64,000 bases of DNA from an uncultured Clostridia bacterium (GTDB lineage Bacteria; Bacillota; Clostridia; TANB77; CAG-508), in assembly GCA_934162365.1 (NCBI GenBank), contig CAKPIK010000001.1, forward strand, positions 341,501-405,500, in the 5' to 3' direction. Positions 13,601-25,968 of the stretch are shown one piece after another. How positions within the stretch are numbered: position 1 is the first letter of the stretch; every line of letters starts with the position of its first letter. A program made the position numbers and the translations under genes. The notes under the pieces are model-generated. The model had not been told where the DNA came from. It saw only the letters and a program-made list of their open reading frames with translations, and did no database searches.

Positions 13601-13629
13601 CATAATACAACCTTCATACGAATACAATT
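13601..13629 (+). promoter_or_regulatory. sigma-E-type promoter of spoIIID
   Basis: TCATAAT-N14-AATACAAT, compared with my recollection of the B. subtilis sigma-E consensus (kmATAww-N14-CATACAmT). It lies ~32 nt upstream of the GGAGG RBS and ATG. Confidence 0.45.
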
Positions 13630-13661
13630 AAACAAATGTAATCGTATGGAGGTTTTGCTTT

Positions 13662-13788
13662 ATGACCAAAGTTTCAATAGAAGAACGTGCAATAGAGCTT
13701 GCACAGTATATAATAGATTCAAAAGATACAGTAAGAGGAGCTGCCAAAAAATATGGAATAAGTAAAAGCACAGTACACACGGATGTAA
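13662..13788 (+). CDS. spoIIID: spoIIID 5' segment (HTH half); the reading frame then runs into the inserted element
   Basis: MTKVSIEERAIELAQYIIDSKDTVRGAAKKYGISKSTVHTDV aligns with B. subtilis SpoIIID ...KKTVRVIAKEFGVSKSTVHKDL. Similarity is lost after 13788. Track ORF 13662..13901 is the read-through product. Confidence 0.85.
13770..13788 (+). repeat. left junction (attL-like) repeat
   Basis: ACAGTACACACGGATGTAA, compared with ACAGTACATAAAGATGTAA at 25807-25825 (16/19 match). The identical core GATGTAA is at 13782-13788. Confidence 0.75.
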
Positions 13789-13916
13789 CACTAAAGAACG
13801 GTTTAAAAAATGGACAAGTTATTCCTGAAAGTATTGAAATAAAGAAGGTTTTCCTAGCAGAGAAAAATCCAGTTGTTAGATTAGGATTATTAATTAAATA
13901 AAATATAAAATTTGGT

Positions 13917-13942
13917 GTCTACTCTTTGAGTGGACATTTTTT
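13917..13942 (+). terminator. terminator just inside the element's left end
   Basis: GTCTACTC-ttt-GAGTGGAC stem (one G-U pair) followed by a T6 run. Confidence 0.5.
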
Positions 13943-14015
13943 GTGAAAAAGCATATATTGAAAATTTTGTCAAAATATGATATAAATAGTGTAAATAAAA
14001 GATTGGAGAATAAAA

Positions 14016-15074
14016 ATGGAAAATAATAAGTTACAAAATGAAATCGAAGAAAAAAGAAATAGTCTATCAACTGATAGATTGGATATGTCATATGGTGAAA
14101 TTATAAGCATGTATCAAAATGATGATTTAATTATAAATCCAGAATTTCAGAGATTATTTAGATGGAATAATTATCAAAAAACCAGATTTGTTGAATCTAT
14201 ATTATTAGGTATCCCTACTCCACCAATATTTGTTGCAGAAGATAAAGAAGGAAAATGGGAATTAGTTGACGGATTGCAAAGATTATCAACAATAATATCT
14301 TTTTTTGGTTTGCTAAAAGGACCATCAGAAGATAAAAATAAATGGACTTTAGAAAAAGCACCTTTAATTTCAACACTAGAGGGAATTAATATTGATACTT
14401 TACCATTGTTATTTCAAAGAAATATTAAAAGAGCTTATTGTAGAGTGGAAATAATAAAATGGGATAGTAATATTGATATGAGATATGAATTATTCAATAG
14501 ATTAAATACTGGAGGTTCAAGTCTAACGGAACAAGAAATAAGAAACTGCATTTTTAGAGGAAACGGAAATGAGTTTAATAATTTTATAAGAGAACTCGCA
14601 GATATGCCAAAATTTATTGAATTAGCTGATATTAGTAGTAAAAAGAAAGAAGAATTATATTTAGATGAATTGGTATTAAGATTTTTATCTTTAAAAGAAG
14701 AATATAATTCGATGAATGATAATTTATCTGAACATATGACAAGGTTTATGGAGGAAGAAACAAAATACCATAATTTATCTTATGAATTTGAGAAACAAAA
14801 CTTTATTAATATCGTTAGTCTTTTATATAAAATAGGACCGGATGTGTTTAAAGCAACGAATAAACAATTTTCAAGTGCAATATATGATGGAGTAATGGTT
14901 GCAACAAATATGTATTATGAAAAATACAAAGATGACGTAACATCTTTAAAAAATAAAATTAAATCATTAAAAGAGAATAAAGAATACAAATCTAATATGG
15001 GCTCAAATTCGGGAGGAAAAGGAAGGGTTCAAAATAGAATTTCTATAGCAATTGATATTTTGGGCAAGGAGTAA
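14016..15074 (+). CDS. DUF262 (ParB/GmrSD N-terminal-like) domain protein
   Basis: INPEFQRLFRWNNYQKTRFVESILLGIPTPPIFV...ELVDGLQRLSTI matches the DUF262 FQR...DGQQRLTT signature. No DUF1524/HNH half is present. Confidence 0.75.
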   Translation: MENNKLQNEIEEKRNSLSTDRLDMSYGEIISMYQNDDLIINPEFQRLFRWNNYQKTRFVESILLGIPTPPIFVAEDKEGKWELVDGLQRLSTIISFFGLLKGPSEDKNKWTLEKAPLISTLEGINIDTLPLLFQRNIKRAYCRVEIIKWDSNIDMRYELFNRLNTGGSSLTEQEIRNCIFRGNGNEFNNFIRELADMPKFIELADISSKKKEELYLDELVLRFLSLKEEYNSMNDNLSEHMTRFMEEETKYHNLSYEFEKQNFINIVSLLYKIGPDVFKATNKQFSSAIYDGVMVATNMYYEKYKDDVTSLKNKIKSLKENKEYKSNMGSNSGGKGRVQNRISIAIDILGKE

Positions 15075-15081
15075 TTTTATT

Positions 15082-15741
15082 ATGAATATAGAAGAAAGTT
15101 TAGAGAATGAATTACAGTGGCGTATAGAAATATTTTCATATCTAAAGACCATTCCAAAGAGGAGAGCTTTTAGTGATAAAGAACAAGAAATATATTATAA
15201 TAGTATTATTCCTATTATCTATAGTCATTTAGAAGGATTTATTAATAAGGCAATTAATATATATAGTACATATATTAATAAACTTGGAGTTAACTATTTA
15301 GATTATCATCCAAATATATTATTACATATTATTGAAAATAAATATAATAATGTCTTTGAAGATGCAATAAAAAATACAAATTCGAAAAATAAAATTATAA
15401 ATAAATTTTGTAACGATATAAAAAATGAAGATATGTCTATTCCAATAAAAGCAAGTAGGAATATGAATATGAATTGTAAGAGAATAAATATATTATTAAA
15501 TAGTTTTAATATAAAACCAATTAGAGAGGATAAATACGAAAGTAAATTAGATGCACTTCTAGGAAAACGAAATTGTATTGCTCATGGTGAAGCTAGTATA
15601 CAAGTTTCAGATACTGATATTACGGATTATATAAAATTAGTCAGTGATGTTATAGAAGATATAATAATTAATATAACTGAAGCATATAATAATAAAGATT
15701 ATTATAATGATGATATTAGAAACAATCTAAATGAAATATAA
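15082..15741 (+). CDS. HEPN-domain protein (MAE_28990/MAE_18760-like)
   Basis: C-terminal Rx4H motif LLGKRNCIAHGE plus IYSHLEGF. AAGGAG RBS. The start lies 7 nt after the DUF262 stop. Confidence 0.65.
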   Translation: MNIEESLENELQWRIEIFSYLKTIPKRRAFSDKEQEIYYNSIIPIIYSHLEGFINKAINIYSTYINKLGVNYLDYHPNILLHIIENKYNNVFEDAIKNTNSKNKIINKFCNDIKNEDMSIPIKASRNMNMNCKRINILLNSFNIKPIREDKYESKLDALLGKRNCIAHGEASIQVSDTDITDYIKLVSDVIEDIIINITEAYNNKDYYNDDIRNNLNEI

Positions 15742-15783
15742 AACGCTTTGAATTTAAGAAATTAAGTTCAAGGCGTTTCTTTA
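15741..15783 (+). terminator. rho-independent terminator
   Basis: AAACGCTTTGAA...TTCAAGGCGTTT stem followed by T-rich sequence. Confidence 0.6.
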
Positions 15784-15872
15784 TGCCTAAAAGATATTTT
15801 ATTAAATTTGATTTTAAAAGCCACAAAATCGAACGTGGTGCGAATAAAAGCTAAACGAAAGGAGAATATGAA

Positions 15873-16406
15873 ATGCAAAAATTAAAAGGATTATGGATTC
15901 CAGCAGAAATATTATTAAATGAAAATTTATCAGATAAAGAAAAGATAATACTATCAATAATTTTATATTTAAGTGAAGAAACTAAAAGTTGTTTTGCAAG
16001 TAATAAATATATTGCAAATATTGTAAATGTAACACCTGAAAGAGTATCTAAAATCATAAGTTCATTAAAAGATAAAGGATATATAAGTGTTAAATTAAAA
16101 TATAAAACAGATAGCAAAGAAATAGAAGAAAGACAAATTACACCTATAGTCGAAAACGTCAATAGGTATAGTCAAAAACTTCAAGAGGGTATAGACAATA
16201 ATAACTATTTAGATAGTGAAAAACGACCATACCCTATAGGTGAAAATAACAAAGATATAATAAATAATATAAAAAATAAAAATAATTATAATAAGGAATG
16301 CCAGACAAGTAAAAAGAAATATGTACCATATAGAAGCGACAGAAATTATGATAACTTAAATTGGGATAGCTTATATGCAAATTATAAAGAGATTACTGCT
16401 ACTTAA
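15873..16406 (+). CDS. winged-helix/HTH protein of plasmid or phage replication-initiator type
   Basis: WIPAEILLNENLSDKEKIILSIILYLSEE...ASNKYIANIVNVTPERVSKIISSLKDKGYI is HTH_36-like. The exact function is not established. Confidence 0.4.
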   Translation: MQKLKGLWIPAEILLNENLSDKEKIILSIILYLSEETKSCFASNKYIANIVNVTPERVSKIISSLKDKGYISVKLKYKTDSKEIEERQITPIVENVNRYSQKLQEGIDNNNYLDSEKRPYPIGENNKDIINNIKNKNNYNKECQTSKKKYVPYRSDRNYDNLNWDSLYANYKEITAT

Positions 16407-16459
16407 ATATTTAGCTAATCTCTTTTAATTTGCCTAAAAAACTATTTATATTTTTTTAG

Positions 16460-16575
16460 CACTCAAAAATAAAAATTAGCTTTTTATTTTTGAGTGGAAA
16501 GGGTGCAGGGACTCCTGCCACACTAACACTTTTTGAAGCAGTAGGCTAAAAAAGTGTTGTAGTGTGTTACAACAC
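16460..16575 (+). promoter_or_regulatory. oriT region (MobV-type) with overlapping inverted repeats
   Basis: Perfect 16-bp hairpin at 16460-16496. IR CACTAACACTTTTT/AAAAAGTGTTgtAGTG at 16521-16564. IR GTGTTGTA-GTGTGT-TACAACAC at 16554-16575. The loop carries TAGTGTGTTA, which resembles the pMV158 nick sequence TAGTGTG/TTA. Confidence 0.6.
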
Positions 16576-16646
16576 ATTAGAGAAAGCAGAAGATTTTAGC
16601 TTATCTCTGTGTTTACTCATTAGATTAAAAGAAGGAGGTATATGAG

Positions 16647-17834
16647 ATGAGTTATGCTATAATAAGAAATACAAAATACAAAAGAGAAAATTTAAAAGGA
16701 ATATATAGACACAATGAAAGAAGAAATAAGAATTATTCAAATGCAAATATAGATAAAGAAAAATCATATTTGAACTATTCAATAAAATCTCCACAATATA
16801 GTTATGAAAAAGAATTTGATTTAATGAGAGAAAAATACAAATTAAAAGGACAAATAAAAGTAGTTAGTAATATTGCTTGTGAATATATAATTACTTCTGA
16901 TAAGGAATTTTTTGAAACAATAGGGGAAGAAGAAACAAAAAGATATTTTGAAACTGCATATCAATTTGTAACTCAATACAAAGATTTAGGCGAACAATAT
17001 ATAATGTCTGCAAAAGTGCATATGGATGAAGAAACACCACATATGCACTTAATTTTTTTACCTGTAGTTCATACCAAAGATAAAAAAGGTAATGACATTG
17101 ACAAATTAGCTTGTAGCGAATTTTGGAAAGCTAAAGATAGTTATAGACAACTTCAAAATGCTTTTTACAATTATATGGTATCTAATAATTTTGAACTGGA
17201 AAGAGGTCTGCCAAAAGAAGAAACAGGAAGAGAACATATAGATTTGAAAGAATATAAAGAAATAACTAATTTTGATAAAACAAAAGAAAAATTACAAAAT
17301 ATAAAATTAGAATTGCCAGATGTTCCAAATTTAGAAGATATAAATGTAAATAGACTTTCAAAAAAGAGAGATGAAAAGATACTTGAAGAAATAATTAAAC
17401 CAAAAGATAATTTGATAAATGACTTGTATCAAGACAACCTAATTTTACAACAAGAATTATCAAGACAAGCAAGAATGGTAGAAAAAGCAGAAAAATATCA
17501 AAGAGAACGAGATAAAATAATGGAAGATAATGAAAATCTACACAATGAAGTGGAACAAATTAGGGCTGAATACAAGCAAAAAGAAAGTGATATTGAATGG
17601 AAATACAAGAGTAAAATTAAAGGTTTAGAAAAAGAAAATAATAAACTTCATAGAATTGTAGAGAAGTTCTACGAAACTATAGATAAATTTATTCATTGGA
17701 TTTGTAAGAAATTTGATATGGGTGCAGAAGATAATTTGATAAGAGATTTTCAAAAAGAAACAAATACCTTACTAAATGCTGAAAAACAAATTGAAAAAGA
17801 AGATAGAGAAAAAGAATTTGAAATGGAATTATAA
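16647..17834 (+). CDS. MobV-family relaxase (Mob/Pre plasmid recombination enzyme)
   Basis: MSYAIIRNTKYKRENLKGIYRHNERR N-terminus and HMDEETPHMHLIFLPV histidine triad, followed by a coiled-coil C-terminus. Confidence 0.85.
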   Translation: MSYAIIRNTKYKRENLKGIYRHNERRNKNYSNANIDKEKSYLNYSIKSPQYSYEKEFDLMREKYKLKGQIKVVSNIACEYIITSDKEFFETIGEEETKRYFETAYQFVTQYKDLGEQYIMSAKVHMDEETPHMHLIFLPVVHTKDKKGNDIDKLACSEFWKAKDSYRQLQNAFYNYMVSNNFELERGLPKEETGREHIDLKEYKEITNFDKTKEKLQNIKLELPDVPNLEDINVNRLSKKRDEKILEEIIKPKDNLINDLYQDNLILQQELSRQARMVEKAEKYQRERDKIMEDNENLHNEVEQIRAEYKQKESDIEWKYKSKIKGLEKENNKLHRIVEKFYETIDKFIHWICKKFDMGAEDNLIRDFQKETNTLLNAEKQIEKEDREKEFEMEL

Positions 17835-17907
17835 TCACTTTATTTTTTTGTATTATTATGATATATTAAGGAGGAAAAATAAAATAAATGATAAAAAAAG
17901 GAAAAAT

Positions 17908-19668
17908 ATGAAAAAAAGTTTTTTAAATAAGACACTAAAAGGTACAAAATTTTATATAGTTTTAATATTAATATTGAGTGCAATATATTCAAGATTATTG
18001 GTATATATACCTATGTTTATACAATATGCACTTGATGGTGTAATAATGGAAAATGAAAGTGTAATTCCAAATCTAATAAGAAACTTATTTTATTCAAATG
18101 ATAAGATATCAAAGATAATAGTTCTTGTTTTAGTATTGATAATGCTAAATATACTAGTTTTTATTGTAAATTATTTGAAGAGTAAGATTAATACAAAATT
18201 TAATTTGATAATAAATAGAAATGTTAAAGAATCAGTTTTAGAGCATATTCCAAAAATAAATTATATGCAATTTAGCAATATAGATAAGTCAAATGTAATT
18301 CAAAGAGTTAATAATGATGCTACTATATATTCTGAATTTTTTAATTCTCAAATAAATTTATTTTTTGATACAATTTTTATTATTATATTTGCAGTAGCAC
18401 AAACTTTACAATTAAATAGTACAGTTGGATTATTTATAGCTATAATTTGTGGATTGATAGTAGCATTATCTATATGGTATTTTAGAGCATCAAAACCATT
18501 AGTAGAAGATATTGTAGAAAGTAATAGAGAAGTAATAAACAAAACTACTATAGAAATAGAAGAATCTAAAATGTTAAAAATATTTAACAGAAGAGATAAA
18601 GAAATGGAAGACTTCTCAAAAATGAATAGTGAATATAAGAAAAAAGAAATAAAACTCGCAAAAATGAAAGTACTATATGGAATAGGTACACATACATTAA
18701 GAAATTTTAAAGAGCCATTTATATTACTATGGGGTGGGATATTAGTTGTACAAGGAGAAATGACACTTGCTACTATATCAATTTTACTAACATATTCAAC
18801 AAAAATATTAGAATATGTATATAAATCAGTAGACAAGCTAAAAGCAATAAATGAATTTATTGTAGCATATAAAAAGTTATCAAGTTTAATGAATTTAGAT
18901 GAAGATATAGAAAAAAATCCATATGTGGAATTAGATGGAGATATAGTTTTTGAAAATGTAAGTATAAAACTAAATAATAACACTATATTAGAAAATTTGA
19001 ATTTTACAATTAATAAAAATGAAAATGTAGCAATTATAGGAGATAATGGTTCAGGAAAAACAGTTATTTCAAAAACTTTAATTGGCTTTTATGATTATAC
19101 AGGAAATATATATATTGGAAAGCACAATATAAAAGATGTAAGTAAAAAGAGCTTAAGAGATTATATAGGAGTAGTTCTTCAATATACATATTTATTTACA
19201 GACACAATAAAAGACAATATAAATATTACTAATCGTCTTATAAAAAATGAAGAGATAATAGAGGCTTGTAAATTAGCAGATATATATGAAGATATAAAAG
19301 GATTTGATAAAAACATAGATTATATAATAGGAAAAGGTGGAAATAACATTTCTGGTGGGCAAAAACAAAGAATTGCAATAGCTAGAACTTTGATAAAACA
19401 AAACGAATTTATAGTTTTTGATGATTCATTATCAAAACTTGATACAAGAACAAAACTAAATATATTAAACAATATTATAAAAATGAAAATAGGAGCAATA
19501 ATAATTTCACATGATTCAGAAGTAGTAAAAAGATGTGATAAAGTATTATTCATAAATGATAAAACCATTGAAGTTGGAAAACATGAAGATTTGATGAACT
19601 CAAATAAATTATATAAAGAAATTATAGAGATTAGTAAAAATAAAATAATAGAAGATGAGGAATTTTAA
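17908..19668 (+). CDS. ABC exporter, fused permease/ATPase (subunit 1 of a pair)
   Basis: Six-TM N-terminal half, Walker A GDNGSGKT, signature ISGGQKQR and Walker B FIVFDD. ATG 17908 is in frame within track ORF 17776..19668. Confidence 0.85.
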   Translation: MKKSFLNKTLKGTKFYIVLILILSAIYSRLLVYIPMFIQYALDGVIMENESVIPNLIRNLFYSNDKISKIIVLVLVLIMLNILVFIVNYLKSKINTKFNLIINRNVKESVLEHIPKINYMQFSNIDKSNVIQRVNNDATIYSEFFNSQINLFFDTIFIIIFAVAQTLQLNSTVGLFIAIICGLIVALSIWYFRASKPLVEDIVESNREVINKTTIEIEESKMLKIFNRRDKEMEDFSKMNSEYKKKEIKLAKMKVLYGIGTHTLRNFKEPFILLWGGILVVQGEMTLATISILLTYSTKILEYVYKSVDKLKAINEFIVAYKKLSSLMNLDEDIEKNPYVELDGDIVFENVSIKLNNNTILENLNFTINKNENVAIIGDNGSGKTVISKTLIGFYDYTGNIYIGKHNIKDVSKKSLRDYIGVVLQYTYLFTDTIKDNINITNRLIKNEEIIEACKLADIYEDIKGFDKNIDYIIGKGGNNISGGQKQRIAIARTLIKQNEFIVFDDSLSKLDTRTKLNILNNIIKMKIGAIIISHDSEVVKRCDKVLFINDKTIEVGKHEDLMNSNKLYKEIIEISKNKIIEDEEF

Positions 19669-19671
19669 GTA

Positions 19672-21361
19672 ATGTTAAAAGAAATTATAAATAATTACAA
19701 AAAACAATCAATTAAAGTAGCACTTCGGTTGGTTTATAACAAGTATAATGGTAGTAGTTTTTATAGCTTTTACAATTGTTATGGTAGAATATGCAATACC
19801 AAGTAAGGATATTAAATTAATAATAGTATTAGGTATAAGCTATTTTGGAGTTAATATTTTGCGTTCTATTGTTACATTTTTTGAAGACTTTAATGATGAG
19901 GGATTTCAAAAAGAATTAGAAGCGGATTACAGAGAAAAAATTTATTTAAAGTTACAAAAAACAACGCAAAGTGAAATAGACAAAATAAGAGTTGGTGAAA
20001 TATTAGAAAATATAATAAATGATACAAAAGAATTTGCAAGATGGTATAATGCAGGAATTTGTAGGTCTTATTTTGGAGGAATAGTAAGATTAGTTGGAAC
20101 ATTGCTTGTGTTAATGTATTTAAATATACCAATAGTTACAATAACATTCTTGATATATATATTTGGATTTTTGGTAACACATATATTTAATAAAAAATCA
20201 ATTGAATACACAAAGTTAAAAAGAGAAGCAAATGCTAAAATATTAAACTGGTCAAATGAACAAGTACAAGGATATTCTACAATAAAATCATTAGAGATTG
20301 AACACGAAAGAATTTTGCAAGTAAAAGGGTTAATTTCACAATATGAAAAGTCTGTAAATAAATTAGAAAAAAATATTAGAATATATACTTGTTTATATGA
20401 TTTTATAGTTTCATTCGTTGGAGTATTAAATATATTAATTGGCTCAGTAGGAGTTGAACAAGGAATCATAACATATGGAGCTATGATAATTCTTGCAAGA
20501 TATTTATCTTCACCAGAGACATATGCAAAATGGGTAATAGAAGGATTTCAAATAAGAAATATTGGAAAGATATCATATGAAAGAATAAATAATATCTTGC
20601 AAAAAGAAGAGGAAGAAATAAATATAGGAATACAATTAGAAAAAGTAAATAGCATTCAATTTGAAAGTATTAGTTTTTCATATGATAATGAGAAAAATGT
20701 TTTAAACGATATATCTTTTAATGTAAATAAAAATGAAAGTGTTGCCTTAATAGGAAGAACAGGTAGTGGAAAGACAAGTTTAGTAAATTTAATTTGTAGA
20801 TTTTATGACTTAAAAGAGGGAACTATTAAAATAAACGGAAAAGACTATAAAGAATATAGTATAAAAAGTTTAAGAGATAAAATTGGATATATTATGCAAA
20901 AAGTCGTAATATTTGATGGAACAATTTTAGAAAATATAAATTATGCTAATAAAAATATTTCAAAAGATGAAATAGTTGAAATATGCAAGAAGTTAAATTT
21001 ACATGATAAAATAATGTCGTTAAAAGATGGATACGAAACAAAGATTTCTAGTGATACAGATATTTTTTCAGCAGGAGAAAAACAACTTTTAAATTTTACA
21101 AGAGTAATGGTTGAAAATCCAGAAATTATAATACTAGATGAAGCTACAGCATCACTTTCATATAGATCTGAAATGATGGTAAGAAAAGCAATAGAAGAGA
21201 TAACAAAAGGAAAAATAAGTTTCATTATAGCACATAGACTCTCAACTATTAAAAAATGTGACAAAATATTACTTATGAAAGATGGTAAAATAATAGAAGA
21301 AGGAAACCACAATGAACTGATGAGTAAACAGGGAGAATACTATCAATTAATTAATGTTTAA
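19672..21361 (+). pseudogene. ABC exporter permease/ATPase (subunit 2) with an apparent +1 frameshift near the 5' end
   Basis: ATG 19672 lies 3 nt after the upstream stop and opens MLKEIINNYKKQSIKVALRLV.... The main ORF (19748..21361: GRTGSGKT, SAGEKQ, IILDEAT) is in the next frame and is open from 19721. Deleting one T of TTT 19733-19735 joins them. Confidence 0.6.
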
Positions 21362-21372
21362 GTGAAAGAATA

Positions 21373-21400
21373 AAAGCTACCGTGTCAAATGGTAGCTTTT
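21373..21400. terminator. bidirectional terminator
   Basis: AAAGCTACC-gtgtcaaat-GGTAGCTTT between convergent genes. Confidence 0.65.
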
Positions 21401-21421
21401 ATGGACTATATATTATATATT

Positions 21422-22707
21422 TTAAGATTTCCAATAAATATCACTTAAATTCTTTAACTCTATTTTAAAGTCTTCTAATTGGTTATCTGAAAATTTATCT
21501 CTTAATTTTCTAGCTTTTTTTGACCATTCTTTAAATTTATTTTCAGTAAATTTCTTTTGATGATTATAATGTAATCCGTGCATTCTTTTATATTCTCTGT
21601 TATATTCTATTAAAATTGGACTATTTTGTACTTTTTCTTTTTGTTTATTTAAAGCACCTATCTCTTTACAAGTTTTTCCTGTATTTTCAAATAAACTATT
21701 ACAATATTTTTGGTCATTTCTTCCTTTTTGATTTGGATTATTACTACTAGTTATAGGTATAAATAGTTTACCACAATTTTCGCATTTAGTTATAACAAAA
21801 TTATTTTGAATTACTTTAAATAACTCAAATTTGATTTGTTCTTCACAATTATTTATCTCATAAACTTCTTCAACATATATATTTTTTGTATGCATTACAT
21901 CAATCAATTCTTCTACTGATAATTGTTTTTCTTTAAAAGTTATATCAGCATTGCAAATATATTTAGTTACAAATTTTGTGTCTAAAAACAATGCGTGGGC
22001 AGGATTGGTGTTCAAATAATGTAAATCAAACACATCTTTAGCTTCATATAAATATAATCTTTCTTCATTACTCAAATTTCGAACAAAAGAATTATTAGAA
22101 TATTCACTTATTAATTCTAATCTTTCTTTCAAGTCGCTTTTTTGATTTATAAGGTCTTTTATTAAGTAATCCTTTATTGTTTCAAAAAACTTTATATATT
22201 CATTATGTTTTTTTTTTCGAGATTTTATCTATTTCAGTAGTCCACTCATACATTATTGTTTGAAATACATAATGGTTTTCTTCTATTTCTTCAAATATTT
22301 CATTTGGAGTATATTCAGTATTATCAATATATACTCCAATATTATTCTTGAATAAGAGGTCACTTCTAAATACTCCTGAATTATATGTTTTTATGATTAT
22401 ATCTATTAAAGTTTGAGTGTAAAAATGCGTATATGGAGAAAAATTCAAACATTCTTGTACTTTATGAAACATTTCAAATAAAAAATTAACCTTTTTATCC
22501 ATACTATTACATTCTTTATTGCTACAAACAATGTTAATTAATTCTGTATATAGAATTTTTAGTTTATCAAATTCATCATATTCCATAATTGCAAAATCAT
22601 ATAATTTATCACCAATATTGTATTCAAAATCCAAAGTAGAACCAAAAAATTCCCCGTCCATTTTTTAAAATAATTTTATTGTTATTAAGTGTGAAATTAC
22701 TTGTCAT
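21422..22707 (-). pseudogene. hypothetical Cys-rich protein (~427 aa if corrected) broken into three frames by two homopolymer +1 shifts
   Basis: GGAGG RBS plus ATG at 22707. Frame changes occur at the A6 run (plus-strand T6, 22661-22666) and the A10 run (plus-strand T10, 22208-22217). Removing one A at each joins MTSNFTLNNNKIILK + track ORF 22203..22661 + track ORF 21422..22132. CENCGK...KYCNS...KTCKE cysteine motifs. Confidence 0.55.
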
Positions 22708-23060
22708 AACTGTGTTTCCTCCATTTTTAAATAGAATATAGCTATTTTAATTTTTAGTTTACCTATAGACTTTGTAAATTCTATTTACAACACTATTTTA
22801 GCATTTTATAATGTTTTTAGCAAGATAGAAAATAGCAACTCTAAATAAATATTTTCTATCAACTGCACATTGAAAATTGAATAGCAAACTGCAAGACATA
22901 TAATGATACTTCCGTCTGGCTAACGTGATGTAAAGGGGCGGTTCACTAAAGGTGAAATGAGGGCAAATCTCATATGTGTATATACCACTTGTAGTTTTAA
23001 AATAAAAGTAATATTTTTAAAACTTTAATAATAGTATTGAAATGGAAGAAGGTGAGAATT

Positions 23061-23243
23061 TTGAAAAAGAGTTTGAATATTACATTTATTAATCCTAATA
23101 CTGAAGAACAAATTGTACAAGCTATGGCTGGAGTTCTTGCTTATAATTTGGCTGAGAATGATGAAAATATAAAATTTGACTATAACAATTCAAATACTTA
23201 TCAAAATTCTCACAAAGAAATAGAAGATGAAATTGAATTATAA
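23061..23243 (+). CDS. small hypothetical protein (60 aa)
   Basis: AAGGTGAG RBS and TTG 23061 give MKKSLNITFINPNTEEQIVQAMAGVLAYNL.... It lies inside track ORF 23037..23243. Confidence 0.4.
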   Translation: MKKSLNITFINPNTEEQIVQAMAGVLAYNLAENDENIKFDYNNSNTYQNSHKEIEDEIEL

Positions 23244-23278
23244 TGACAAAAAATATAGAAAAATTTTTACAAAAAGTC

Positions 23279-23307
23279 TTGATATTTTAATAAAAAGTTT
23301 GTATAAT
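23279..23307 (+). promoter_or_regulatory. sigma-A promoter of the type III TA locus
   Basis: TTGATA, 17-nt spacer, TATAAT, with TG immediately upstream of the -10 box. Confidence 0.55.
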
Positions 23308-23346
23308 GAATATAATAGTAGTAGATATTTAATATCTGCTATAATT

Positions 23347-23454
23347 AAAAATGTGAATCGCAACGTCACTTGCGAGATATAAATTTGTGAATGAAAGAAT
23401 GTTAATCGCACCCCTACTTGCGGAATATAAATGAGTAGGTGAAAAAATGTTAAT
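23347..23454 (+). ncRNA. type III antitoxin RNA repeats (two full ~47-nt units plus a partial third)
   Basis: Unit 1 is AAAAATGTGAATCGCAACGTCACTTGCGAGATATAAATTTGTGAATG. Unit 2 is AAAGAATGTTAATCGCACCCCTACTTGCGGAATATAAATGAGTAGGTG. Then AAAAAATGTTAAT... follows. Internal stems covary: TCGCAA/TTGCGA versus CGCA/TGCG, and TCAC/GTGA versus CCTACT/AGTAGG. Confidence 0.7.
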
Positions 23455-23465
23455 TATAGGAAAAT

Positions 23466-23498
23466 GGGGGTCTAGAAATTATTTAGATCTCCTATTTT
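23466..23498 (+). terminator. weak attenuating terminator between antitoxin repeats and toxin gene
   Basis: GGGGGTCTAGAAATTATTTAGATCTCC imperfect hairpin followed by TATTTT. This position is typical of type III TA loci. Confidence 0.4.
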
Positions 23499-23522
23499 AA
23501 TAAAAGGAGAATTGCAATAAAA

Positions 23523-23993
23523 ATGATAATAGAAGATGGAAAATTTTATTTTATAAAAGATGAATTTTTTGATGTATTTAAAGATTATGGATTAATGCTA
23601 AACAAAGAAAATGGAAAAAAGAGACCATGTTATTTTTGTTTTAGAGATAAATATAATAAAGAAATTATTTGGTTTGTTCCAATTTCAACTAAATATGATA
23701 AATACCAGAAAATATATGAATATAAAAAACAAAGACAACATAGAGTATACAATTTTGTTTTTGGTGAAGTAGTTGGAAAGAAAGCTGTATTTTTAATTCA
23801 AAATATATTTCCAACAACTGAAGAATATATATTAGAGAAATATGTTGCAGAAAACAAAGATGTTGAAATAGCACTAAATGTAAGAAACAAAATTATAGCT
23901 TACTCAAGACAAGTAATAATGAAAGCAGAGCAAGGTATTAATATTCCATTTTATAATATTATAGAAATGGAAAAGATATTATTAAATAAATAA
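23523..23993 (+). CDS. type III toxin-antitoxin system toxin (ToxN/AbiQ/CptN-like endoribonuclease)
   Basis: KFYFIKDEFFDVFKDYGLMLNKENGKKRPCYFCF...WFVPISTKYDKY resembles the ToxN/AbiQ-type N-terminus. It is preceded by tandem RNA repeats and a terminator. Confidence 0.7.
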   Translation: MIIEDGKFYFIKDEFFDVFKDYGLMLNKENGKKRPCYFCFRDKYNKEIIWFVPISTKYDKYQKIYEYKKQRQHRVYNFVFGEVVGKKAVFLIQNIFPTTEEYILEKYVAENKDVEIALNVRNKIIAYSRQVIMKAEQGINIPFYNIIEMEKILLNK

Positions 23994-23996
23994 TTA

Positions 23997-24052
23997 TTAA
24001 AACTCAAATGTACTCGCCACCCTGTTGGCGACAAATAAATGCGTAGATGAAC
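23997..24052 (+). repeat. orphan antitoxin-like repeat downstream of the toxin gene
   Basis: AAACTCAAATGTACTCGCCACCCTGTTGGCGACAAATAAATGCGTAGATG keeps the AATGT..TCGC(stem)GCGA.A.ATAAAT..GT...TG layout, with compensating stem CGCCA/TGGCG. Confidence 0.55.
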
Positions 24053-24067
24053 AAATTATAAAAAGCT

Positions 24068-24097
24068 ATTCCTAAATGCAGGAGTAGTTTTTTTGTG
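24068..24097 (+). terminator. rho-independent terminator
   Basis: CTATTCCT-aaatgc-AGGAGTAG stem followed by a T7 run. Confidence 0.6.
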
Positions 24098-24185
24098 CTT
24101 TTATATTGAAAAAGTGAAACTGATATGCTAAAATGTAACAGAACGAAAACAACGAAACAGAGAAAATAAAGAAAGTAGTGATGTT

Positions 24186-25817
24186 ATGAAAATTGCAGCA
24201 TATTGTAGGGTATCAACTGAAAAAGAAGCACAAATAGACTCATTAGAAAAGCAAATAGAATTTTTTAATGAATTTACAAAAAAGAACGGTTATGAATTGT
24301 ACAAGCTATATGCAGATGAAGGAATATCAGGAAAACAAATAAAACACAGAAAACAATTCCAACAAATGATGATAGATGCCAAAGCAAAAAAATTTGATAA
24401 AGTAGTAGTAAAAGATGTAAGCCGTTTTGCAAGAAATACAGTAGACTTATTACAAAGTGTAAGAGAGTTAAAATCTTATGGTGTACAAGTTGATTTCTTA
24501 AACAATGGTGAAGTAATGGAAGGTGGCTCTGAATTTATATTAACAATTTTAGGAGCAATGGCACAGCAAGAAAGTGCAAATATGTCTAAAAGAGTTAAAT
24601 TCGGAAAAGACATCACAGCTAAAAAAGGAAGAGTGCCTAACCTGGTATTTGGATATGACAAAATTCCAGATGAAAGATATACTTTAAAAATAAATGAAGA
24701 AGAAGCAAAAATCGTAAAAGAAATATTTGAAAGTTACGTATATAAAGGAATAGGTACAACAAAAATAGCATGGAACTTAAATGACAGAGGAATACGTACT
24801 AAAAAGACAAAATCAAAATGGGTACAAACATCTATTGTAAGAATGCTTAAAAATCCAATATATACAGGAAGAGTAACAAATAAAAAATCAGAAGTAACAG
24901 ACTTTATAACAGGGACAAGAAAAGAATTGCCAGAAGAAGAAAGGATAATAGTGGAAAAACCAGAAATGAGAATAATATCAGACGAACTATTTAACAGAGC
25001 ACAGGAACTTTTAGAGCAAAGATCAAACGAATTTAAATTAAATAACAAAAGAGAAAAAACAGAATATGTATTTAGCACACTTATATATTGCAAACATTGT
25101 GGTTATTCATTTAGAAGAATAAAGAGAAAATATACAGCTGATGGACCAGAATATATAAGATGGGTATGTAGTGGAAGAAATTCAATGGGAGTAAACCATT
25201 GTCCAAATACAACTGTTATTGATGAAGAAGAACTTTTAAATGCAATAAAAATCTATTTAAAAAGTATAATAAAAAATAAAAAAGATTTTATGAAAGCTGT
25301 TGAAAAAGAATTTGAAAAGATTACAAAATTAAGAGAAAACAATGAAAGAAGCGAAGAAAGTCTTTTAAAAGAAATTGAAAAAGTAACAGTTAAAAAACAA
25401 AAATATATGGAAATGTTTCAAAATGAAATAATCAATATACAAGAATTAAAACAATACACAAATCCACTAAATGAAGATATTACAAGACTTGAAAGAGAAT
25501 TAAAACTAATTACATCAGAAATAAAAGAAAAAGATGTACTAGAAAAAGAACTTAATAAAACAATAAAAACAGTAGATGACATATTAAATAATCAAACAAT
25601 AACAAATGCAATGTTAAAAACAATAATAGATGTAATTGAAGTTGATTCAGATTCAAATGTAGAGGTAAGACTAAAATTACTAAATGAAATAGGAACAAAT
25701 GAGCCAGTAATAACGAAATTTGAAGACATTTACCAAAATGGAGAAGACGCAGAAAACAAAGATGCAAATAATAATGAAGAAAACTCTACCGCTCTGAAAA
25801 GTAACAACAGTACATAA
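24186..25817 (+). CDS. large serine recombinase
   Basis: MKIAAYCRVSTEKEAQIDSLEKQ catalytic N-terminus, then a recombinase domain, zinc ribbon CKHCGYSF...WVCSGR...CPN and coiled coil. The stop codon lies 1 nt before the right-hand GATGTAA core. Confidence 0.9.
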   Translation: MKIAAYCRVSTEKEAQIDSLEKQIEFFNEFTKKNGYELYKLYADEGISGKQIKHRKQFQQMMIDAKAKKFDKVVVKDVSRFARNTVDLLQSVRELKSYGVQVDFLNNGEVMEGGSEFILTILGAMAQQESANMSKRVKFGKDITAKKGRVPNLVFGYDKIPDERYTLKINEEEAKIVKEIFESYVYKGIGTTKIAWNLNDRGIRTKKTKSKWVQTSIVRMLKNPIYTGRVTNKKSEVTDFITGTRKELPEEERIIVEKPEMRIISDELFNRAQELLEQRSNEFKLNNKREKTEYVFSTLIYCKHCGYSFRRIKRKYTADGPEYIRWVCSGRNSMGVNHCPNTTVIDEEELLNAIKIYLKSIIKNKKDFMKAVEKEFEKITKLRENNERSEESLLKEIEKVTVKKQKYMEMFQNEIINIQELKQYTNPLNEDITRLERELKLITSEIKEKDVLEKELNKTIKTVDDILNNQTITNAMLKTIIDVIEVDSDSNVEVRLKLLNEIGTNEPVITKFEDIYQNGEDAENKDANNNEENSTALKSNNST

Positions 25818-25825
25818 AGATGTAA
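25807..25825 (+). repeat. right junction (attR-like) repeat
   Basis: ACAGTACATAAAGATGTAA, with the core GATGTAA at 25819-25825. Confidence 0.75.
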
Positions 25826-25968
25826 GTGAAAGATTACTAAAGATAAATCCTGCATTAGCACATGATGTTAGAATAGTACTAGATGAAAATAAAGCAGAAA
25901 GACATATAAGGGGAGGTATGGCTACAAAACTAAAATATGAACATGATAAAGCAATCAAGAGTGGATAA
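25819..25968 (+). CDS. spoIIID: spoIIID 3' segment
   Basis: No start codon of its own. It translates to DVSERLLKINPALAHDVRIVLDENKAERHIRGGMATKLKYEHDKAIKSG-stop. This matches B. subtilis SpoIIID DLTERLPEINPDLANEVKEILDYHKSIRGHLGGESTKLKYKK. Confidence 0.85.
   Translation, partial: DVSERLLKINPALAHDVRIVLDENKAERHIRGGMATKLKYEHDKAIKSG

Follow-up and report, generated by a model that had tools for sequence, protein, structure and literature searches.

Genes of the pair and the encoded proteins

We analysed a 64,000-nt stretch of DNA from an uncultured Clostridia bacterium (assembly GCA_934162365.1, contig CAKPIK010000001.1, positions 341,501 to 405,500), hereafter the window, and focused on two adjacent, co-oriented genes at 14016-15741 encoding a DUF262 protein (A) and a HEPN protein (B). 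An earlier note, made from the sequence without database searches, had described a 352-aa DUF262 open reading frame (ORF) followed 7 nt later by a 219-aa HEPN ORF, and had proposed them as a candidate split GmrSD-like defence system. The coordinates and motifs were confirmed. The pair adds one more case to a known and widespread kind of system, similar to PD-T4-2 of Escherichia coli, and the association itself is not new. The genes and their flanking signals are the following:

14016-15074, + strand: gene A, 352 aa, ATG start, containing FQRLFRW and VDGLQRLST
15082-15741, + strand: gene B, 219 aa from the ATG at 15082, containing IYSHLEGF and LLGKRNCIAHGE
14005-14008, + strand: putative ribosome-binding site of A, GGAG, 7 nt 5' of the ATG of A, read from the sequence
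15066-15071, + strand: putative ribosome-binding site of B, AAGGAG, inside the last codons of A and just 5' of its stop codon (15072-15074)
15742-15777, + strand: terminator-like hairpin after B, 16-bp stem and GAAA loop, then the U-rich tail UCUUUAU
13914-13938, + strand: terminator-like hairpin and T-run 3' of the truncated spoIIID frame, from a consensus scan, 11-bp stem, then TTTTGTGAAA
13958-13986, + strand: candidate sigma-70-type promoter, TTGAAA-17 nt-TATAAA, with TG at -14/-15 (TGnTATAAA)
13931-13959, + strand: alternative candidate promoter, TGGACA-17-TATATT

The two genes are separated by 7 nt (15075-15081). A mechanical ORF listing gave a longer frame for B, from an alternative TTG start at 15052, but the ATG at 15082 is the likely start because the 219-aa homologues begin with MNIEE. 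The two-gene unit appears to end at the intrinsic-terminator-like hairpin 15742-15777, for which RNA folding gave a free energy of -19.9 kcal/mol and z = -5.54, none of the 200 shuffled sequences being equally stable. The consensus scan found three terminator-like sites in the region for 0.4 expected, and the hairpin at 13914-13938 could shield the pair from transcripts arriving from upstream. Two promoter-like matches were found between this hairpin and A, and a promoter of the pair's own is plausible. The earlier note had attributed to the pair both a promoter and a terminator; the terminator was well supported, whereas the promoter found no statistical support, promoter-like matches not being enriched in this 25% G+C DNA (23 found, 24.8 expected in shuffles).

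Protein A matched the Pfam family PF03235 (GmrSD_N/DUF262; E = 1.7e-24, aa 28-180). Its best match among the PADLOC models was NsnA (7.9e-62, 207.7 bits, aa 9-349), and it also matched PD-T4-2_A (9.5e-54, 180.8 bits, aa 27-349 against profile positions 41-361 of 363). Both matches are nearly full length and span the C-terminal half of A (residues ~185-350), which formed a second, helical domain in the AlphaFold2 model (predicted local distance difference test, pLDDT, 86.3). The earlier view that A consists only of DUF262 had thus to be abandoned. The region corresponding to the A C-terminus has been named ParBDB, a DNA-binding domain also found in SspE-M (Li et al., 2025, PMC12065111); for domains of this type, DNA binding has been reported in SspE and proposed for NsnA. 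The C-terminal domain of A is NsnA-C/ParBDB-like, of a predicted DNA-binding type.

The motifs FQRxxRW (44-50) and DGLQR (85-89) of A included ten residues that were invariant in 118 homologues (F44, Q45, R46, R49, W50, D85, G86, L87, Q88, and R89), and a word-indexed search returned 3743 matches to A. The top Foldseek matches of the A model were nucleotide-bound (CTP/CDP) ParB (6sdk, 7bnr), BrxU (7p9k), and SspE (7drs), with probabilities of 0.89-0.98 and modest E-values; a sequence profile search of the PDB gave a motif-level match only (9jfl). A profile scan (E <= 1) detected no DUF1524, HNH or other nuclease domain in A. We thus regard A as a predicted DNA/nucleoside triphosphate (NTP) sensor-regulator, in which a DUF262 domain of ParB/Srx fold is followed by a helical domain at the C-terminus. 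A reading in terms of ParB partition was rejected.

One close relative of A stood apart. On a metagenome contig (L081:314-1633) we found a 439-aa protein (P0041), 82% identical to A, with additional ABC_tran/SMC_N matches, whose gene is followed by a signal-peptidase gene and not by a HEPN gene. It was considered as a partner swap similar to the Menshen system (NsnABC) and dropped: the contig is short and chimeric, with no HEPN and no NsnB or NsnC. Chimerism or rearrangement is the probable explanation of this copy.

Protein B matched PF18737 (HEPN_MAE_28990) over its full length (3.2e-29, 103.1 bits for a gathering cut-off of 26.8) and the sister family PF18735 (HEPN_RiboL-PSP; 1.1e-22), so that its identification as a HEPN protein in the earlier note was borne out. 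Its putative catalytic motif, R163-N-C-I-A-H168-G-E, corresponds to the HEPN Rx4H signature, and W13, R14, Y47, E51, G52, N129, R163, N164, H168, and G169 were invariant in 131 diverse homologues. The AlphaFold2 model was all-helical (pLDDT 89.9). The B family comprised 1744 clusters at 50% identity (E <= 1e-3, representative library), nearly all of them stand-alone proteins of 200-220 aa, and partner proteins of the B type bear the NCBI name 'MAE_28990/MAE_18760 family HEPN-like nuclease'. The PADLOC models of NsnB and NsnC did not match B, and neither A nor B had a match in NCBIfam. We regard B as a stand-alone HEPN protein of the MAE_28990/RiboL-PSP clade and as the predicted RNase effector.

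Linkage, carrier element and genomic context

The linkage of the two genes was examined in a sample of one genome per species (GTDB), scanned with patterns derived from the B alignment, which yielded 80 loci with a B relative. In 79 of them, a hidden Markov model (HMM) detected an ORF of the A family directly upstream and in the same orientation; in the last one the contig ends 362 nt before B, and an A-like C-terminal remnant is still present. The gap between the two genes varied from -106 to +45 nt, very often being a 4-nt overlap. The loci were distributed over Bacillota, Bacteroidota, Alpha-, Beta-, and Gammaproteobacteria, Cyanobacteria, Actinomycetota, Bdellovibrionota, Planctomycetota, and one archaeon of the Methanobacteriota, and all 81 B proteins matched both PF18737 and PF18735. 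Sampling from the A side gave the same picture: four A homologues out of four (Methanobacterium, Paenibacillus, a Chloroflexi metagenome-assembled genome, MAG, and one further genome) had a PF18737 gene directly downstream. No third gene was universal among the 80 loci. The pairing is real and not due to chance, and the co-occurrence that the earlier note had named as a check on its proposal turned out to be conserved in both directions.

The pairwise-identity matrices of A and B were strongly correlated (r = 0.89, none of 999 Mantel permutations reaching this value), which is consistent with joint inheritance and perhaps with co-adaptation. Of the two proteins, A, the putative sensor, changes more slowly than B, the putative effector: A and B were ~52% and ~30% identical, respectively, to their nearest outgroup, and mean pairwise identity over the loci L001-L080 was 37% for A against 28% for B.

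In the window, the pair lies within an integrated element whose main features are listed below:

13770-25814, + strand: integrated mobilizable element, 12,037 bp, splitting the sporulation regulator gene spoIIID, with an 8-bp core at both ends and SpoIIID restored across it
16647-17834: Mob_Pre relaxase ORF, overlapping the longest frame of the first ABC transporter gene
17776-19668 and 19748-21361: two ABC transporter genes, each with a membrane domain and an ATPase domain, cargo of the element
24186-25817: large serine recombinase, at the right end of the element

The 8-bp core ACAGTACA was found at 13770-13777 (left junction) and 25807-25814 (right junction), and joining the flanks gave an intact SpoIIID of 88 aa. 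The ORF at 13662-13901 matched the Pfam SpoIIID family over residues 5-50 only, the rest of the gene being at ~25815-25960. Counted from the left junction, the DUF262-HEPN genes come first among the cargo of the element, in agreement with the earlier note; the other genes encode an HTH_36/DnaD_N-like protein, the MobV (Mob_Pre) relaxase, the two ABC transporters, a DUF6076 protein, and the recombinase. The recombinase frame crosses the right-hand core, with its TAA stop codon (25815-25817) immediately after it (region 25782-25817); therefore, excision would alter the C-terminal end of the recombinase. By its organisation the element resembles the gene-intervening elements of the skin, SPbeta, and gin type, and the literature that we examined on these elements does not name spoIIID as a target.

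Two related MAGs illustrate how the element varies. A Clostridia MAG from goat colon (L001, 4522-8769) has the same left junction, pair, HTH gene, and relaxase as the window (13603-17834), with identities of 96.7% for 13603-16294 and 84% for the relaxase; downstream, different cargo takes the place of the ABC transporters. A second MAG (L002, 4825-7384) shares only 13939-16503 of the window, i.e., the pair and the HTH gene, at 85% identity. The element is modular, and this pattern of sharing indicates that the pair and the HTH gene travel as a block.

DNA methylase or restriction-modification (R-M) genes were present within 4 kb of the pair in about 20 of the 80 loci, including an N6_N4_Mtase gene directly upstream on the same strand (8 loci), Eco57I-type genes (7), and C5 methylase genes (5). 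One separately sampled pair (L090:1-2984) directly follows hsdM-hsdS, and DUF262 plus MAE_28990 pairs stand beside methylase genes in the temperate phages Terrisporobacter phage TVCOM_ph1 and Peduovirus P24B2. The window pair has no adjacent methylase gene, being bordered by the spoIIID junction upstream and by the genes for the HTH protein and the relaxase downstream. A methylase gene is thus an optional feature of such loci. A search near the pair for RNA antitoxins such as those of AbiF/ToxI gave no Rfam match (E <= 1) and no meaningful tandem repeat.

Relatives of the pair were present in 112 plasmid records, of which 76 correspond to conjugative or mobilizable plasmids. The most compact case was the E. 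coli plasmid pLR-27_3 (L082; 3948 bp), whose four annotated genes are a DUF262 plus HEPN pair, a replication-initiation gene, and a gene for a VbhA-family antitoxin, and of which near-identical copies exist in three other E. coli assemblies; with this gene content, it would seem that pairs of this kind have a stabilising or selfish function. A pair on an E. coli IncF plasmid (L083) has a HEPN of the MAE_28990 type. In the chromosome of E. coli TW11681, a P2-like prophage carries a DUF262 plus RiboL-PSP-HEPN pair between the cI and integrase genes (L084:3916-5686), and its DUF262 gene was seen in ten E. coli chromosomes. The HEPN proteins of pLR-27_3 and of the prophage matched RiboL-PSP only, and both matched the PADLOC model PD-T4-2_B (4.4e-4 and 1.3e-8, respectively). 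E. coli therefore carries both types of HEPN partner, and the A proteins of these three pairs were homologous to A of the window (1e-36 to 1e-58).

Relation to PD-T4-2 and other DUF262 systems

The closest validated system is PD-T4-2 of E. coli ECOR65, which was obtained by functional selection and listed as 'DUF262, HEPN' (Vassallo et al., 2022, PMC9519451). PD-T4-2A matches PF03235, and PD-T4-2B matches PF18735 (97.8%) and PF18737 (96.9%) by HHpred (Table S3, PMC9519451). The system protects against T4 both when cloned in MG1655 and, as deduced from its deletion, in native ECOR65 (PMC9519451). The earlier note could not tell whether such a pairing had been tested experimentally; for this relative with the same architecture, it has. 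The window pair and PD-T4-2 both consist of two co-oriented genes, A then B, with a stand-alone HEPN of the RiboL-PSP/MAE_28990 clade and no DUF1524. In both, A combines a PF03235 DUF262 domain with a C-terminal region, and A of the window fits the PD-T4-2_A model with a score (180.8 bits) comparable to that of the A protein of the E. coli P2 prophage (186.5 bits), whose partner matches PD-T4-2_B. The two systems differ in the best Pfam family of B (MAE_28990 in the window, RiboL-PSP for PD-T4-2B), in the host, here a gut Clostridia-type bacterium, and in the carrier, here the element that splits spoIIID. They also differ in what has been observed: PD-T4-2 has a known phage phenotype, whereas the window pair is known from sequence and was compared through profiles and E. 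coli proxy pairs. The proxies for ECOR65 PD-T4-2 were the plasmid and P2-prophage pairs: a blastn search with the E. coli plasmid pair returned nothing but related pairs from P2 prophages and plasmids, and a Buttiauxella pair used as the query against E. coli genomes gave no matches.

The association of a ParB(DUF262) gene with an MAE_28990 HEPN gene was already described in 2013, in a purely computational study that called the partner a 'ParB nuclease' and reported that the operon also contains genes for DNA methylases (Anantharaman et al., 2013, PMC3710099). As in these operons, B of the window belongs to the MAE_28990 family and has a co-oriented, adjacent DUF262 gene, an arrangement conserved across genomes. 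By contrast, there is no methylase gene at the window locus, and only about one quarter of the sampled loci have a methylase or R-M gene within 4 kb.

PD-T4-2, Menshen, and Dazbog have been reviewed as DUF262 systems lacking DUF1524 that are largely uncharacterised (PMC12065111). The window pair shares with Menshen (Millman, 2022; Li et al., 2025, PMC12065111) the architecture of NsnA, a ParB-DUF262 domain followed by a C-terminal ParBDB-type domain, and the proposed logic is alike, with a DUF262 DNA sensor acting upstream of an RNase effector. However, the window has neither the ABC-ATPase transducer NsnB nor the inPIN nuclease NsnC, and the putative effector is the adjacent HEPN protein: no gene for NsnB (ABC-ATPase/DUF3696) or NsnC was found downstream of A, where HEPN, HTH_36/DnaD_N-like, and Mob_Pre genes are located instead. 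GmrSD, BrxU, and SspE, which are type IV restriction and PT-sensing enzymes, have in common with A the N-terminal DUF262 domain of ParB/Srx fold with its DGxQR NTPase motif. These proteins are, however, single polypeptides of ~580-770 aa in which DUF1524, a His-Me DNA nuclease or nickase, serves as the effector, whereas A ends at 352 aa and the effector would be a separate HEPN protein, predicted to be an RNase. Membership in this group fails, as no DUF1524 or HNH match was detected in A or B (E <= 1). The label 'split GmrSD' is a loose one, nothing in the pair being derived from GmrD; A is of the NsnA/PD-T4-2_A type and not a truncated GmrSD.

HEPN-MNT toxin-antitoxin (TA) modules, in which the minimal nucleotidyltransferase (MNT) partner AMPylates the HEPN toxin, are different, since the partner in the window is DUF262 and not MNT and HEPN-MNT structures were only non-significant fold matches. 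PD-lambda-5 is also a validated E. coli defence system with ParB-like and HEPN-like regions, plus a methyltransferase (Vassallo, 2022), but it belongs to another family, its ParB being of the ParBc type and its HEPN likeness, located in that same polypeptide, amounting to a weak match of the DUF4145 type.

We read these comparisons as delineating one superfamily, in which DUF262 proteins of the NsnA/PD-T4-2_A type are associated with an adjacent, fast-evolving HEPN of the RiboL-PSP/MAE_28990 clade. PD-T4-2 would be the validated representative of one branch, and the window pair would belong to the other, larger, sister branch of the MAE_28990 type.

Possible functions of the pair and implications

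The function that we consider likely is that of a PD-T4-2-like anti-phage or anti-mobile-element module, carried as cargo by the 12-kb integrated mobilizable element. The proposal of the earlier note that a DUF262 sensing module and, replacing the DUF1524 nuclease, a separate HEPN RNase form a candidate defence system is in this sense supported by the domains, the synteny, and the mobile and R-M context. The predicted roles of A as sensor and of B as RNase effector are suggested by the conserved NTP-type motifs, the ParB/Srx fold, the DNA-binding-type C-terminal domain, the intact HEPN dyad, and the synteny. In the uninfected cell, A would keep B inactive or unengaged. When A meets a DNA feature specific to the invader, possibly modified or otherwise foreign DNA, binding or hydrolysis of NTP by A could act as a conformational switch, as in ParB, BrxU, and SspE, and B would be released or activated. 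It would then cut cellular or phage RNA (tRNA, rRNA or mRNA), translation would stop and the infection would abort. We infer in this scheme the roles of sensor and effector, the trigger, the RNA target, and abortive infection as opposed to direct immunity.

Several results weigh against so close a relation to PD-T4-2 or weaken what can be drawn from it. B of the window did not match the PADLOC model PD-T4-2_B (168 positions) at E <= 1, nor did any of the 81 family members at E <= 0.01, and the model is functional, as shown by its match to the E. coli prophage HEPN. Conversely, the HMM of the window B family detected the MAE-type partners only and missed the RiboL-PSP-type E. coli partners that match PD-T4-2_B; with hhalign, one of the latter aligned to the B-family alignment by the RNxxAHG motif alone (probability 6.6%). 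The link to PD-T4-2 therefore rests on A and on the classification of the HEPN proteins at the Pfam level. In addition, Foldseek found no significant match of the B model in the PDB (HEPN toxins and Csm6' appeared at E > 2) and a profile search found no relative of B among PDB sequences; since there is no significant fold match, the assignment of B to HEPN rests on profiles and the motif. Shared descent alone could also produce the correlated divergence of A and B. Finally, experimental validation is confined to the PD-T4-2 branch and does not extend to the MAE_28990-type branch, and the mechanism of PD-T4-2 is itself uncharacterised (PMC12065111), our literature search having found no mechanistic paper on it.

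The pair could instead be an addiction module of the toxin-antitoxin type, with B as a HEPN RNase toxin and A as its neutralising partner, selected for maintenance of the element rather than for defence against phages. The position of the pair at the edge of a mobile element points in this direction, as do the frequency of its relatives on plasmids, including the four-gene 3.9-kb E. coli plasmid with its VbhA-family antitoxin gene, and the tight translational coupling, the frequent 4-nt overlap being typical of TA operons; HEPN toxins are moreover known TA components, such as those of HEPN-MNT, which appeared weakly among the fold matches of B. We nevertheless consider this unlikely. A is a 350-aa protein that carries conserved NTPase-type motifs and diverges less than B, small labile antitoxins typically showing the opposite; many pairs are chromosomal and located beside R-M genes; and a system of homologous architecture emerged from a selection for phage defence, in which role it was validated (PMC9519451). 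Addiction and abortive infection are, besides, mutually compatible. It is less likely still that the pair targets DNA in a restriction-like manner, A being a ParB-type nuclease or nickase active on foreign DNA and B an accessory rather than the effector; either methylation elsewhere in the genome would shield self DNA, or modified DNA would be the target. The name 'ParB nuclease' and the operon methylases of the 2013 study (PMC3710099) would agree with such an activity, as would the methylase or R-M genes near one quarter of the loci and the fact that the DUF262 relatives GmrSD, BrxU, and SspE act on DNA, BrxU and SspE being among the best fold matches of A. However, it is DUF1524 and not DUF262 that cuts DNA in these three systems, as reviewed, and no nuclease domain was found in A. 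The Rx4H site of B is invariant in its 131 homologues, as expected of a catalytic effector, and most loci, including that of the window, lack an adjacent methylase gene.

There is very little to be said for a degenerate or partial Menshen system, with A as NsnA and with an ATPase and an effector that have been lost or are encoded elsewhere. It would explain why NsnA is the best PADLOC match of A; yet NsnA also outscores PD-T4-2_A for the E. coli A proteins whose partners match PD-T4-2_B, so that the NsnA model is simply broader. Membership was moreover refuted by the genes downstream of A, and the HEPN partner is kept in 79 of the 80 loci.

With a PD-T4-2-like module as the preferred interpretation, the pair reveals no new principle, and its practical value is one of annotation. 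Among the checks named in the earlier note, the comparison with PADLOC succeeded for half of the pair: A matched NsnA and PD-T4-2_A, and B matched nothing in the library. The PADLOC 2.0 models would thus not call the pair, and a very common association (1744 B clusters) escapes through the model of its B component. Censuses of defence systems that rely on these models may therefore miss part of the PD-T4-2-like systems, above all those of Bacillota, Bacteroidota, and archaea. More speculatively, and with considerable doubt, the MAE_28990-type branch may be a functionally distinct defence family, with a trigger or RNA target perhaps unlike those of PD-T4-2, and the presence of the window pair, carried by an element that splits spoIIID, may be tied to developmental excision in the mother cell. 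With its compactness, strict pairing, and clear catalytic motifs, the branch to which the window pair would belong is a reasonable model in which to study the mechanism of the DUF262-HEPN class, both what the ParB-like NTPase senses and what the RNase cuts.

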